Source: a virus. From it: a stretch of 31,257 bases of DNA. The position numbers and the translations under genes are program-made. Below the pieces are notes generated by a model. That model did not search any database. It was not told where the DNA came from and saw nothing but the letters and a program-made list of their open reading frames with translations. This document shows positions 4,024-6,978 of the stretch, in pieces. Numbering within the stretch: the first letter of the stretch is position 1; every line of letters begins with the position of its first letter. The stretch lies in the UHGV virus genome UHGV-0008471; one strand, written 5' to 3'.

Positions 4024-4407
4024 TCAGAATGGGATGGAATCATCGTATACAGGAGTGTTCTGCTGGTTACTACTTTGCTGCTGCGGGCCATTTCCTGAAG
4101 CTGCAAATCCAATCTTTGCATTCAGTAATTCAAGAGTGATTGATTGACCATTTTGCCCCTGATAAACATCAACCCTGATGTTTTCTCCGGTAATTTCCAC
4201 AATGCCACCTTCAACAAGAACACTACGGTAGTAATCCGCTTGCGCTCCCGGCTTGGCAAATACAACGGCGCTGTAGTTTGTCCATTCTTTCTTTTTTGTC
4301 TGGCGATCGTAATACTGAACGCCAGCACGGATGTTGAATCCGATATTTTCCCCGGCCTGAAACTCTCTTGCGGGCTTGTTTAGTCTTACAGTAATCGAAT
4401 GTGCCAT
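4024..4407 (-). CDS. ssb: Single-stranded DNA-binding protein (about 127 aa)
   Basis: Start MAHSITVRLNK; Gln/Gly/Asn-rich tail ending in acidic DDSIPF, as in SSB C-termini (DDDIPF); start overlaps the erf stop (TAATG). Confidence 0.75.
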   Translation of the reverse strand: MAHSITVRLNKPAREFQAGENIGFNIRAGVQYYDRQTKKKEWTNYSAVVFAKPGAQADYYRSVLVEGGIVEITGENIRVDVYQGQNGQSITLELLNAKIGFAASGNGPQQQSSNQQNTPVYDDSIPF

Positions 4408-5012
4408 TAAGCAGCAGCTCCTTCTAATTCGTCTCGTCTGATGTTGTAAACGTCCTGCGCTTTGTGCTGCTCCGGTGTGCCTTCGAGCATCTTCCACGCT
4501 TTGGCGAACGCCTGTTTAAGCTCTTCCACGGTGTTTTTCTGCAATGCTGCGTCAGTGAATGCTTTTAGAACCTGTTCAGGTGTAGGTGATAGTTTTGATT
4601 GCTTTGCTGCTGCGTTCTGCTGATGTTTATGCTCGTCGGTATCTGCATCTTTCGCATCATCAATGCCGAACAAACCATTGAGGCAATACTTGCGTGCATA
4701 AGAGCTTGTAGCTCCCGTAACTTGTGCAGAATCCATTCCTTTCTTGCTTTCTTCCTCTCGTGCAAGGGCGGTTGCCGTATGACTGTTTTCGCCATCGGTA
4801 ATAGTTGCCGTGGCTTTCACGTAATACCGATCACCAATCAACACAACTTCATCGCTGATTGATAAAAACAGGCCATTCAGTAACGGCTTAACGCCTTCAA
4901 GAATGTCTTCGCAGCTTCTGTATTTATATTTACCGAATGAGTTGTACTGATTCTTTGGCGCGTTCAGATTCTCCTGAATAGCTGCCAGTCTTGCGTAAAA
5001 TTCTTTGCTCAT
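4407..5012 (-). CDS. erf: Erf-family single-strand annealing recombinase (about 201 aa)
   Basis: N-terminus MSKEFYARLAAIQENLNAPKNQYNSFGKYKYRSCEDILEGVKPLL matches phage P22 Erf as I recall it. Confidence 0.85.
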   Translation of the reverse strand: MSKEFYARLAAIQENLNAPKNQYNSFGKYKYRSCEDILEGVKPLLNGLFLSISDEVVLIGDRYYVKATATITDGENSHTATALAREEESKKGMDSAQVTGATSSYARKYCLNGLFGIDDAKDADTDEHKHQQNAAAKQSKLSPTPEQVLKAFTDAALQKNTVEELKQAFAKAWKMLEGTPEQHKAQDVYNIRRDELEGAAA

Positions 5013-5114
5013 ATGATTGTTCTCAGAATGGACACGGCCCAAGGAAATAACGCTGATTTAATACTTCGACTCGGGACAAGTTAAGGCATACCCGCATTCC
5101 TTCGCGGTCGCCAT

Positions 5115-5273
5115 TATGTCGATACCAGAGAGCTTTCTGCGTGTACATGCGCCTCTGTAACTTGCTCTCCTTCACTGTGGTTGCAAGTGACATGAATATC
5201 TCCTTCGTTACCGATTAATTCTTTCATCTGACGAATGAATTCTTCGTCTGACCAGTTATCTGTAAAACTCATT
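5115..5273 (-). CDS. Small protein (52 aa) at the arf position between kil and erf
   Basis: Hand translation MSFTDNWSDEEFIRQMKELIGNEGDIHVTCNHSEGEQVTEAHVHAESSLVST; ATG overlaps the kil-like stop (ATGA). Function assigned by position only. Confidence 0.4.
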
Positions 5274-5422
5274 TCCTGCGATACCATGGAAGGTTGATAG
5301 CTGATTTCATCGCTTTATTTGCTTCAAGCCACATTTTAGAATCACCAATAAATCTGGCTATTACTGCTTTGTTTTGTGCTGCACGAAGCATCTGGTGATT
5401 GATGGCTATTTCATTGCGCATA
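5270..5422 (-). CDS. kil: Kil-like host cell-division inhibitor (50 aa)
   Basis: Hand translation MRNEIAINHQMLRAAQNKAVIARFIGDSKMWLEANKAMKSAINLPWYRRK; the FIGD...KMW motif and position next to cIII resemble lambda/P22 Kil as recalled; GAGG SD. Confidence 0.5.
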
Positions 5423-5538
5423 ATAAGACCTCAACTCTTTTCCATCCGTCACGTAATTTACGGGTGATTCGTTCAAGTAAAGATTCATTTAGTTGGAAGG
5501 CACCCATGCGAGCGCCTCCCGCGATTGCGTAAATCATG
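5407..5538 (-). CDS. cIII: CIII/C3-like FtsH inhibitor (43 aa)
   Basis: Hand translation MIYAIAGGARMGAFQLNESLLERITRKLRDGWKRVEVLLCAMK; carries the ESLLERITRKLRDGWKR motif I recall from lambda CIII; AAGGAA SD. Confidence 0.65.
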
Positions 5539-5561
5539 GGTGGTTCCTTATGTTGGTTTTA

Positions 5562-6530
5562 TTAGTAGGTTATTTTTGTTGCGAATACTTCGCCTTTTAC
5601 GATGGCTGTTATGATATTTTTAGCAACATCTTCTGATGCGCCAACCTTGATAAGGTCAGCAAGTATTTTGTTATTTACTTCTTTCCGGTGAGCTTTATCC
5701 TTTGCTCTACGCTCTTCTTCGTCCTTGATTCTTTTTTCTTCTGCTATTCTGGCTTGCTCTTTTGCTTCAGCCTCGCGCCGGATTCGTTCAGCCTCCTCCT
5801 GTGCTTTTCGGCGTTCTGCTTCAATTGCCGCCTGCTTTTCTCTTTCAGCTCGTTCTGCTGCCTCTTTTGCTTCGCGCTGTGCTCGTTGCTCGGCTTCAAT
5901 GCGTTCACGCTCTGCACGTTCCGCTGCGGCCTTAGCTTCTGCTTCTCGCCTTGCTGCTGCTTCAATTTCGGCTTTTGCCTTTGCTTCGGCTTCAGCTCTG
6001 GCTTTCTCTTCAGCTTCTCTTTTTAAGCGTTCTTCATGCTCTCGCTTTTCCTGCTCCGCTTTGAGTCTTGCCTCTTCTCTTTTGCGGTCAAATTCGCGAT
6101 CCATCAAAATCGCTATTTCATGGTCAGACTCAATTTGCTTTGCGAGAGCTTCAGCTGCTGCCTTAGCTTCTTCTTCGGCTTTAATCCGCGCCTGTTCTTC
6201 CTCATAATCAGTAAGAGGCTGGCGCGCCTTGGCTTTCAGCTCATCAAGGCGATCACGCACTGTCTTGCGGTTGGCATCAATTAGCTTTGGAATTTCCTTC
6301 AGTTCAGCAACAAGGTCTTTGCCAAGACCATCGAGATATGTTTTCGTCTGCGCAACTTTATACGCCAGAGAAGCGATCTCCTTTCTGCCCTTTGCCGTTG
6401 TGATATCAGGCACAAAGGACATAACTTCACGTTCAACCTTTTGAAGGATTTCTTCAATCTGGTCGGCAGACTGAAATACAGTCATTGCATTTGCTTTTTC
6501 AATAACAACTAAATCTGTTACTTCACTCAT
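5562..6530 (-). CDS. Coiled-coil phage protein with Glu/Ala/Arg/Lys-rich low-complexity centre (322 aa)
   Basis: Strong AAGGAGG SD; about 150 aa of EAKA/ERAE heptad-like repeats flanked by globular ends; often annotated TolA-like. Confidence 0.7.
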   Translation of the reverse strand: MSEVTDLVVIEKANAMTVFQSADQIEEILQKVEREVMSFVPDITTAKGRKEIASLAYKVAQTKTYLDGLGKDLVAELKEIPKLIDANRKTVRDRLDELKAKARQPLTDYEEEQARIKAEEEAKAAAEALAKQIESDHEIAILMDREFDRKREEARLKAEQEKREHEERLKREAEEKARAEAEAKAKAEIEAAARREAEAKAAAERAERERIEAEQRAQREAKEAAERAEREKQAAIEAERRKAQEEAERIRREAEAKEQARIAEEKRIKDEEERRAKDKAHRKEVNNKILADLIKVGASEDVAKNIITAIVKGEVFATKITY

Positions 6531-6889: not shown

Positions 6890-6916
6890 AAAAAAATCGC
6901 CCTCACACTGGAGGGC
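6890..6916 (-). terminator. Rho-independent terminator on the leftward transcript (tL-like)
   Basis: Minus RNA GCCCUC-CAGUGU-GAGGGC followed by GAUUUUUUU; between the AT-rich gene and the acidic gene. Confidence 0.65.
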
Positions 6917-6978
6917 AAAGAAGATTTCCAATAATCAGAACAAGTCGGCTCCTGTTTAGTTACGAGCGACATTGCTCC

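Follow-up and report, generated by a model that had tools for sequence, protein, structure and literature searches.

Four small overlapping genes upstream of erf in a P22-like Escherichia coli prophage: cIII, kil and two further reading frames

Comparative analysis of the virus genome UHGV-0008471 indicates, with high confidence, that the region just upstream of its prophage recombination module carries four small genes and forms the promoter-distal part of an early-left (PL) operon, in an E. coli prophage that is P22-like (Lederbergvirus-type). In the leftward direction the order is cIII, kil, ORF3, ORF4 and erf, all on the minus strand of the window, by which we mean the whole analysed stretch of 31,257 nucleotides. 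A preliminary description, made from the letters alone, had placed exactly three tandem minus-strand ORFs of 43, 50 and 52 aa at positions 5115–5538. ORFs of precisely these lengths were found; the region was right, but both ends were off by one base (the ORFs occupy 5114–5537, stops included), and a fourth gene, ORF4, had been overlooked. The genes had also been called hidden, which is true of the supplied ORF track but not of the phage records, as Sf6 has all of them annotated and HK97 has gp42 and gp42.1. The homologue search that had been proposed as a check gave Pfam matches for the first two peptides and PHROG profile matches for all three, and chance is excluded for the ORFs by two Pfam matches above curated cut-offs and by PHROG E values of 1e-20 to 1e-40. 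The features are listed in Table 1.

Table 1 Features of the cIII–erf region (window coordinates)
Feature	Coordinates	Strand	Basis
cIII ribosome-binding site AAGGA, 7 nt from ATG	5545..5549	-	direct sequence reading
cIII, 43 aa, FtsH-inhibitor family peptide	5406..5537	-	Pfam Lambda_CIII, phrog_550
kil ribosome-binding site GAGG, 7 nt from ATG	5429-5432	-	
kil, 50 aa, Kil-family cell-division inhibitor	5269..5421	-	Pfam Lambda_Kil, phrog_2055
ORF3, 52-aa acidic peptide, = Sf6 gp30 / HK97 gp42.1 (phrog_2123)	5114..5272	-	
50-nt block, ORF3 codons 1-17, MSFTDNWSDEEFIRQMK	5223..5272	-	DNA comparison
WSDEEFI motif, ORF3 residues 7-13	5234..5254	-	matches FSDEEFI, P22 Arf residues 5-11
ORF4 ribosome-binding site AAGGAG, 6 nt from ATG, within ORF3	5200..5205	-	sequence reading
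ORF4, 56 aa, HkaM family (phrog_1723), = Sf6 gp29 / HK97 gp42	5023..5193	-	
erf (strand-annealing recombinase, context)	4407..5012	-	ORF list; CUS-3, Sf101, RefSeq 'ERF family protein' annotation

Annotated copies of cIII and kil occur at 95–99% DNA identity in CUS-3, phiv205-1, Sf101, Sf6 and HK97, and ORF3 is annotated with them in CUS-3, Sf101, Sf6 (genes 30–32) and HK97. Among the 5,426 complete E. coli genomes scanned, 462 contain at least 80% of the 515-nt segment. PGAP names cIII and kil in RefSeq E. coli genomes, whereas neither Arf nor any of the four peptides belongs to an NCBIfam family.

The first gene is cIII, as had been proposed. Its product matched Pfam Lambda_CIII (PF02061) with 56 bits (cut-off 25.7, E 4e-15) and phrog_550 (E 1.6e-20), the near-identical phages carry the same annotation, and the RefSeq label reads 'protease FtsH-inhibitory lysogeny factor CIII'. 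Residues 18–34 are identical to residues 16–32 of lambda CIII, R32 included, over the 17-residue string ESLLERITRKLRDGWKR. The pN/pS of the gene was 0.135 (S=9, N=4). In lambda CIII, a competitive FtsH inhibitor, residues 14–37 are essential and sufficient (PMC1838920). By homology, the 43-aa amphipathic-helix peptide would competitively inhibit host FtsH and thereby stabilise the CII/C1 activator and favour lysogeny, an activity that, like every other given here, is predicted. The gene shares with lambda cIII its PL-operon position and an overlap with the start of kil, which is 16 nt in the window and 32 nt in lambda, and its product lacks the C-terminal third of the 54-aa lambda protein. The N-terminus (MI.AIAG.ARMG) resembles that of P22 C3, the core is of the lambda/P22 class, and the C-terminal tail (..LLCAMK) stems from the 5' end of kil; the whole tail after GWKR, VEVLLCAMK, is common to the window peptide and HK022-class CIII because it is read from an HK022-type kil 5' end. 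The essential 24-residue region therefore differs in its last five positions, which are VEVLL in the window and LIDIL in lambda.

The second gene had been called kil-like, and this identification was borne out by Pfam Lambda_Kil (PF06301; 72.6 bits, cut-off 27.6, the full 31-position model covered), by phrog_2055 (E 1.2e-35) and by annotation in the near-identical phages. Its pN/pS was 0.17 (S=18, N=12). The window protein is 44% identical to lambda Kil, with which it has in common the helix-turn-helix core IA.FIGD.KM..EA, a length of about 50 aa and a position directly after cIII, and relative to which it carries a 7-residue N-terminal extension. The C-terminus, PWYRRK, is basic, with RRK in place of the RSK/RSSK of lambda-type Kils, a motif reported for almost every homologue of lambda Kil (PMC11762379). 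Kil requires its helix-turn-helix core and hits FtsZ via ZipA (PMC3961180, PMC11762379), and by this homology the 50-aa peptide would block FtsZ-ring assembly in a ZipA-dependent manner and lead to filamentation. HK022, HK97, Sf6 and CUS-3 have Kil proteins of the same subfamily, phrog_2055; the P22 'Kil' is a non-homologous protein. As cIII and kil are already known, their presence is an ordinary finding that adds nothing new; it marks the window as a lambdoid prophage with the standard lysogeny and host-takeover cassette.

The junctions of the small genes are conserved, although not all in the form first described. Coupling through an ATGA start/stop overlap holds for kil and ORF3, where 150 of 152 related loci retain it and the gene upstream can be either of two unrelated ones; cIII and kil are joined by their 16-nt overlap, with no ATGA, and this overlap is likewise retained, in related loci, by each of the two classes of cIII found in front of kil. 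In a third group of related loci an HK140-type cIII-like gene replaces kil. A Shine-Dalgarno sequence had been claimed before each ORF, which is correct for cIII and kil, but the AGGA of ORF3 sits 1 nt from its ATG. This is too close for a normal Shine-Dalgarno sequence, so the ORF3 start depends on the kil ATGA overlap, and ORF3 would be started by termination-reinitiation at the kil stop.

ORF4, the overlooked gene, lies in the +1 frame relative to ORF3 and overlaps it by 80 nt; a gap of 10 nt separates its end from the erf ATG at 5012. Its product matched phrog_1723 with an E value of 9.4e-36 over profile positions 3–58 of 58, and the same profile was matched by HkaM of HK620 (3.6e-33) and by an Erwinia phage protein (4e-16). 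ORF4 has a strong ribosome-binding site, and its GAAGGAG-N6-ATG was kept in all 152 loci examined. Within the overlap, polymorphism follows the frame of ORF4, with a pN/pS of 0.11 (13 S : 6 N, P=5e-6), rather than that of ORF3, with a pN/pS of 5.6; outside the overlap ORF4 gave 0.15 (24 S : 12 N, P=2e-8). The AF2 model is a confident hairpin of two helices (residues 7–26 and 30–51, mean pLDDT 91.9), for which a PDB fold search returned generic helical hairpins only (best E 0.6). A phmmer search with ORF4 against 1.84 billion representatives gave only 16 matches, which points to a small, enterobacterial family; matches to Dyadobacter in a genome scan were rejected as 20-residue chance matches within a longer unrelated ORF.

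We considered whether a programmed +1 frameshift within the overlap might join ORF3 and ORF4 into a single protein of 82 aa. In-frame ORF3::ORF4 fusions of 81–82 aa do occur in databases, and one is present on 36 contigs, but their junctions are scattered from end to end of the overlap, the pattern that random 1-nt indels or sequencing errors would produce, and ORF4 is served by a ribosome-binding site of its own, conserved in all 152 loci examined. Moreover, HK620, an Erwinia phage and several prophages have the ORF4 family gene but lack ORF3, and unsystematic inspection identified no slippery site for the required +1 shift. The scattered junctions and the conserved ribosome-binding site led us to reject the programmed frameshift, which we regard as extremely unlikely.

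ORF4 as a separately translated gene has relatives of similar build. HkaM, Sf6 gp29, HK97 gp42 and ORF4 are all basic, 56–62 aa long and adjacent to a strand-annealing gene, and all end in ...F[LI]x(2-6)PF, the C-terminus of ORF4 being ...YFLGPCPF. HkaM of HK620, the gene first called 'arf' by its position in that phage (PMC5928155), is 32% identical to ORF4 and precedes Sak4, whereas ORF4 precedes Erf. In the loci examined, the family gene always lies 2–16 nt upstream of an Erf, Rad52-family or Sak4 gene. This constant place upstream of any annealing protein, together with the purifying selection, makes a generic accessory role in the recombination module the most likely reading of ORF4. In HK620, the pair of Sak4 and SSB by itself stimulated recombineering to the same degree as the complete hkaM-containing module (PMC5928155), which leaves a recombination role of ORF4 unproven. 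Literature searches for hkaM, gp42.1 and Sf6 gp29 gave unrelated papers only.

ORF3, which is annotated in Sf6, CUS-3 and Sf101, behaves differently from ORF4. Its product matched phrog_2123 with an E value of 1.4e-40 over profile positions 1–51 of 52, and 94 phage records matched it, about 60 of them at full length and with 86–100% identity. The peptide is very acidic (11 D+E, 2 K+R, net charge -9), and its AF2 model contains a single helix at residues 9–20, the remainder being disordered (mean pLDDT 62.6). Among 167 loci we counted 50 protein variants of ORF3 and 9 of ORF4. In the 5' part of the gene its own frame has the lowest pN/pS of the three (0.46 versus 0.92 and 1.54), although neither P value for purifying selection (0.097 for codons 2–26, and 0.17) is significant. 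In the tail, where it overlaps ORF4, pN/pS was 5.6 (1 S : 18 N), and this part evolves as if unconstrained. The length is 52 or 56 aa, as the stop position varies with the ORF4 allele. Conservation is confined to the first ~17 residues, a short helix with WSDEEFIRQM, and the C-terminal half is ORF4 sequence read in another frame.

These data raise the question whether ORF3 encodes a functional peptide at all. The frame might instead be untranslated, or serve as a coupling or leader frame that brings ribosomes from the kil stop over the ORF4 ribosome-binding site, the conserved 50-nt head being a mosaic boundary sequence maintained by recent recombination. Such a reading agrees with the non-significant pN/pS of about 0.5, the unconstrained tail with its variable stop, the poor Shine-Dalgarno spacing, a nonsense allele (S8*, TCA to TAA at window position 5250, upstream of ORF4 and silent for kil) that recurs in 3 loci, and the DNA identity of the 50-nt block with its sharp breakpoints. 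It is less easily reconciled with the core WSDEEFIRQM, which is constant while residues 2–6 change (FTDN to IADT), or with P22 Arf, which encodes the motif with a different Ser codon family (TCA in ORF3, AGT in P22 arf). The frame and its ATGA start are also retained behind two unrelated upstream genes, and a 21-nt triplication in Salmonella ORF3 stays in frame. We consider the absence of a functional peptide a realistic possibility but somewhat improbable; most likely, ORF3 provides an Arf-like acidic accessory peptide or a protein-binding motif.

HK140 and SEN22 carry the 50-nt block itself with 100% identity between flanks that are both unrelated, and the mosaic breakpoint at window position 5223 also occurs in phages Louie and 683R2. 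In HK140 and SEN22 the block forms part of an unannotated 35-aa short form (phrog_17766), whose first 17 codons are the same as those of ORF3; it continues into another acidic tail (..EQEKDDDSDSE) and is followed by a 103-aa ORF and RecT rather than by ORF4 and Erf. Complete DNA identity in otherwise unrelated contexts, and a 6-bp hairpin (GACGAA-N7-TTCGTC) inside the block, could mean that it is non-coding and acts in cis, at the RNA or DNA level, for instance as a terminator, as a processing site or by binding a protein. Its fold energy did not, however, improve on shuffled sequences (z -0.37), the whole window had no Rfam family match, and no terminator-like site was reported at the block; P22 arf lacks the hairpin although it has the peptide motif. 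On the fold energy and the Rfam result we rejected an RNA element in the ORF3 head, and a cis-acting role of any kind appears highly unlikely.

The resemblance to P22 Arf bears on the earlier assignment of the third ORF to the arf position. Arf (PF17585, phrog_2445) and ORF3 occupy the same small-gene slot between kil and erf, and both are very acidic, Arf having 47 aa with 12 D+E, 1 K+R and a net charge of -11. They have (F/W)SDEEFI near the N-terminus in common, and no similarity was detected beyond these 7 residues. For the motif, BLASTP gave 6/7 identities (pairwise E 0.012). Profile methods gave an E value of 0.027 with a probability of 1.8% (hhalign), E values of 0.02–0.06 (PHROG Arf profile) and 3.5–4.3 bits (a custom-built Arf HMM), with a composition-controlled shuffle P of 0.009–0.021 for the last. 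Against Pfam Phage_Arf, which P22 Arf itself matches with 121 bits, ORF3 had no match at E<=1. ORF4 was also compared with the C-terminal part of Arf, and homology was rejected (hhalign probability 0.2%).

The defining activity of Arf would be stimulation of Erf-mediated recombination, the subject of phage genetics of the type carried out by Poteete et al. 1991 (cited in PMC12315714). It could be proposed that the region holds three coupled genes only, with the 52-aa ORF3 as the Arf equivalent that adjoins and assists erf. The slot between kil and erf, which the preliminary description had recognised correctly, fits this proposal, as do the small size, the acidity and the (W/F)SDEEFI motif, and a 90%-identical protein is labelled 'accessory recombination function protein' in one database source. 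ORF3 is, however, not the neighbour of erf. In P22, arf and erf are joined by an ATGA overlap; in the window, ORF3 stops at 5114 and is separated from erf by ORF4, whose frame is the selected one. Besides the missing Pfam match and the low hhalign probability, the N-terminal block of ORF3 also precedes the RecT modules of HK140 and SEN22 and is thus not Erf-specific. The three-gene model is already contradicted on gene count and adjacency, and we judge it unlikely as a whole.

The only fresh lead in this region is the invariant, SSB-tip-like C-terminal PF of ORF4. Tails of the HkaM family invariably end in xPF-COOH (PCPF, EPPF, ETPF, PAPF, KLPF and ELPF), an ending that resembles the SSB tip of E. 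coli (DDDIPF), that of the SSB-like protein of the window phage itself (DDSIPF) and that of HK620 (NDYPPF). The HK620 tip recruits Sak4 to SSB-coated DNA (PMC5928155). ORF4 and its HkaM relatives could conceivably be mimics of the SSB C-terminal tip, each composed of a basic two-helix hairpin and a flexible tail, an idea that we put forward as speculative and on balance doubtful. If it were true, ORF4 could dock where an SSB tip binds, either on the phage annealing protein or on host clients of SSB (RecO, ExoI, PriA or chi), and the docked protein would gate access to single-stranded DNA; tip mimicry would also account for the association of the gene with three unrelated families of annealing proteins. 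The acidic ORF3/Arf-type (W/F)SDEEFI peptides could act as a further partner or as a modulator. The fidelity of the HkaM family to strand-annealing genes of three folds, together with the PF ending, yields a hypothesis for a putative phage recombination accessory factor, and some such phage recombination systems serve recombineering. In practice the region matters for annotation. The module is very common, with about 8% of complete E. coli genomes carrying it. Of two RefSeq records inspected, one annotated the weakly constrained ORF3 and the other neither ORF3 nor ORF4; the overlapping frame under selection, ORF4, was missing from both.

The minus-strand interval between the coiled-coil gene and erf contains four small ORFs: cIII (ORF1), kil (ORF2), an ORF for an acidic peptide (ORF3) and a gene of the HkaM family (ORF4). 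The preliminary description had reported three, of 43, 50 and 52 aa, at 5115-5538; these are present with exactly those lengths in that region, with both ends placed one base too high, and the fourth was overlooked. Read from the sequence, cIII and kil have the claimed Shine-Dalgarno signals (AAGGA and GAGG, each 7 nt from ATG), the AGGA of ORF3 lies just 1 nt from its ATG, and ORF4 has the best ribosome-binding site of the four (AAGGAG, 6 nt, ATG). Coupling through ATGA, proposed for the whole array, holds for kil and ORF3, a junction type retained in 150 of 152 related loci; it does not hold for cIII and kil, since kil starts 16 nt inside cIII. ORF4 lies in the +1 frame relative to ORF3, with which it shares 80 nt, and 10 nt separate its stop from the erf ATG.

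Coordinates of the small ORFs and neighbouring features in the window
Feature	Coordinates	Strand	Description
Terminator-like hairpin	6897-6918	minus	upstream of coiled-coil gene
Coiled-coil gene	5562-6530	minus	322 aa; upstream boundary of small-ORF interval
cIII (ORF1)	5406-5537	minus	43 aa, MIYAIAGGARMGAFQLNESLLERITRKLRDGWKRVEVLLCAMK
kil (ORF2)	5269-5421	minus	50 aa, MRNEIAINHQMLRAAQNKAVIARFIGDSKMWLEANKAMKSAINLPWYRRK
ORF3	5114-5272	minus	52 aa from ATG overlapping kil stop, MSFTDNWSDEEFIRQMKELIGNEGDIHVTCNHSEGEQVTEAHVHAESSLVST
ORF4	5023-5193	minus	56 aa, MSLATTVKESKLQRRMYTQKALWYRHNGDREGMRVCLNLSRVEVLNQRYFLGPCPF
erf	ATG at 5012	minus	downstream boundary of small-ORF interval
SSB-like gene	4024-4408	minus	just downstream of erf

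The cIII-like and kil-like assignments were correct, and both identities are long known and routinely annotated. Pfam scores were 56 bits for Lambda_CIII and 72.6 bits for Lambda_Kil, above the cut-offs of 25.7 and 27.6, and the PHROGs matches concurred (E 1.6e-20 and 1.2e-35). CIII residues 18-34 are identical to residues 16-32 of lambda CIII, and Kil shares 44% identity with lambda Kil through the helix-turn-helix core. Both genes are under purifying selection (pN/pS 0.135 and 0.17; S/N counts, 56 related loci). In lambda, CIII, an oligomeric amphipathic helix, is a competitive inhibitor of FtsH for which residues 14-37 are both essential and sufficient (PMC1838920); lambda Kil exerts a ZipA-dependent block on FtsZ assembly and requires its helix-turn-helix core (PMC3961180, PMC11762379). 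By homology, the CIII and Kil of the window would inhibit FtsH and block FtsZ assembly, respectively. The P22 protein called Kil (62 aa, 6002-6190 of the P22 locus L005) has by eye no evident likeness to lambda Kil or the window Kil, and some pipelines give it the same product name as lambda-type Kil.

The 43-aa CIII (5406-5437 region) is a natural chimera of a lambda/P22-class core and an HK022-class tail. After GWKR it continues VEVLLCAMK, with the LLCAMK tail common to HK022-class CIII (MMHFQLAGSG...EALCAMK), which has the same ending; the tail is common because the last 16 nt of cIII double as the 5' end of an HK022-type kil. About one third of related loci carry the chimeric cIII, about one third the HK022-class cIII, and the remainder neither.

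The occurrence of cIII, kil and further small genes here was already known. The first 25 kb of the window is a P22-like prophage nearest to phiv205-1 and CUS-3; over 901 nt, the neighbourhood matches these two at 98.6% identity and Sf101, HK633, mEp043 and others at 95-98%, and all of these have cIII, kil and one or two more small genes annotated. In Sf6 the equivalents are genes 32, 31, 30 and 29, whose annotation likens them to lambda cIII, lambda kil, HK97 gp42.1 and HK97 gp42, respectively. Of 5,426 complete E. coli genomes, 462 carry at least 80% of a 515-nt segment; the PGAP product names there are 'protease FtsH-inhibitory lysogeny factor CIII' and 'host cell division inhibitory peptide Kil'. 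In one of two RefSeq E. coli records inspected, ORF3 appears as a hypothetical protein; in the other, neither ORF3 nor ORF4 is listed. Both records leave ORF4, a frame under purifying selection, unannotated.

ORF4 was assigned to phrog_1723 (E 9.4e-36). Also placed in this family are HkaM of HK620 (E 3.6e-33) and an Erwinia phage vB_EhrS_59 protein (E 4e-16). We fetched 166 viral-contig loci with ORF4 relatives and analysed polymorphism frame by frame on the 114 that could be aligned without gaps (79 haplotypes). Within the 80-nt overlap, changes were mostly synonymous in the ORF4 frame (S 13, N 6; pN/pS 0.11, P 5e-6) and not in the ORF3 frame (S 1, N 18; pN/pS 5.6, not significant); the ORF4-only part gave S 24, N 12 (pN/pS 0.15, P 2e-8). 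Among 167 ORF4-bearing sequences (the fetched loci, the window and three annotated phages) there were 9 protein variants of ORF4 and 50 of ORF3. ORF4 is therefore a solid gene. It also occurs without ORF3. It directly follows kil in HK620, an unassigned 49-aa ORF that occupies the kil position in vB_EhrS_59, the coiled-coil gene in two further loci (L171, L172), and an HK140-type cIII-like gene in an uncultured Enterobacterales genome, in Yersinia and in Pantoea; in another locus (L170) it lies 85 nt after a Kil-like gene. In all these cases a strand-annealing gene follows 2-16 nt downstream, encoding P22-type Erf, a 207-209-aa Erf-like protein, a Rad52/Rad22-family protein or Sak4.

The evidence on ORF3, assigned to phrog_2123 (E 1.4e-40), is divided. 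Its C-terminal half is simply ORF4 sequence in another frame, and its stop shifts with the ORF4 allele to give 52 or 56 aa. In its favour, HK140 and SEN22 share its initial 50 nt (codons 1-17) at 100% identity, behind a different upstream gene, again with an ATGA overlap, and leading into a different acidic tail; this 35-aa short form precedes a 103-aa ORF and RecT. In 80 more loci of that type, WSDEEFIRQM is invariant and residues 2-6 vary (FTDN, IADT, VADT). Against it, neither data set shows more than weak constraint on the peptide (pN/pS 0.46 and 0.61, not significant in either case): codons 2-26, which are ORF3-only, gave S 6, N 14 (P 0.097), with 0.92 and 1.54 in the other two frames (not significant). 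Three loci also carry a nonsense allele, S8* (TCA to TAA, window 5250). On balance, we lean towards ORF3 being translated. The S8* allele spans two module contexts, the ORF4+Erf and 103-aa+RecT types. In a variant from Salmonella enterica serovar Chester (P0001, 7 contigs), a 21-nt tandem repeat directly after WSDEEFI triplicates FIRQMKE in frame. AlphaFold2 gave one helix at residues 9-20 of ORF3 and disorder elsewhere.

An RNA element in the conserved head of ORF3 was unsupported (fold z -0.37), and an Rfam search gave no match. A programmed frameshift from ORF3 into ORF4 was likewise unsupported: the junctions of 81-82-aa fusions present in databases are spread along the whole overlap, as expected from random 1-nt indels, and the ORF4 ribosome-binding site is retained in 152/152 loci examined. 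These proteins, P0027 among them, are in-frame ORF3::ORF4 fusions created by single-base indels at many overlap positions; one may be a real circulating allele and not a sequencing error, because it was found on 36 contigs.

The 'arf-position' label given to the third ORF was partly wrong, because the overlapping and better supported ORF4 had been missed; the erf-adjacent gene is not ORF3. P22 Arf (MQHEFSDEEFIALISPEIEEEVEQQ...) has FSDEEFI at residues 5-11 and ORF3 has WSDEEFI at residues 7-13, with different codons for the motif Ser (AGT and TCA), and both are short, strongly acidic peptides (net -11 and -9). The similarity goes no further than this 7-residue motif (hhalign E 0.027, probability 1.8%; BLASTP pairwise E 0.012). 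The PHROG Arf profile gave E 0.02-0.06 and Pfam Phage_Arf did not match ORF3, while 0.9-2.1% of composition-preserving shuffles scored as high as ORF3 with a custom Arf HMM. ORF3 lies outside the Arf family by any threshold, and an Arf-like role is possible but doubtful. ORF4 proved unrelated to the C-terminal part of Arf.

The HkaM family offers a modest, testable side lead beyond the preliminary description. The family has few members, all in Enterobacterales (16 representatives among 1.84 billion proteins; 12 credible genome loci). The AlphaFold2 model of ORF4 is a two-helix hairpin predicted with confidence (mean pLDDT 91.9; helices at residues 7-26 and 30-51), its tail being less ordered, and Foldseek found no specific match to this model. 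Every member ends in ...[YFH]F[LI][GAS]x(2-5)PF, with tips including PCPF, EPPF, ETPF, PAPF, KLPF and ELPF. The SSB-like protein encoded downstream of erf ends in YDDSIPF, the canonical SSB C-terminal tip; its CUS-3 and Sf101 equivalents are annotated only as hypothetical protein. E. coli SSB ends in DDDIPF. As a small hairpin with an SSB-like tip, encoded beside an annealing-protein gene, ORF4/HkaM could conceivably mimic the SSB tip, a role we consider unlikely; unlike SSB tips, those of the family often lack the typical acidic residues. In HK620, the NDYPPF tip of the phage SSB enables Sak4 to bind SSB-coated DNA, Sak4 and its SSB alone gave the same recombineering stimulation as the whole hkaM-containing module, and the gene, initially called arf by position, was renamed HkaM because it has no similarity to Arf (PMC5928155).

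The Sf6 counterpart of the coiled-coil protein is gp33; the protein is rich in E, A, K and R, and some records label it 'TolA'. CUS-3 has this region split over two ORFs, suggesting that a frameshift occurred in that phage. The hairpin upstream of this gene is strong and followed by a T run; tL2-type terminators are annotated upstream of the equivalent early-left genes of Sf6 and HK620.
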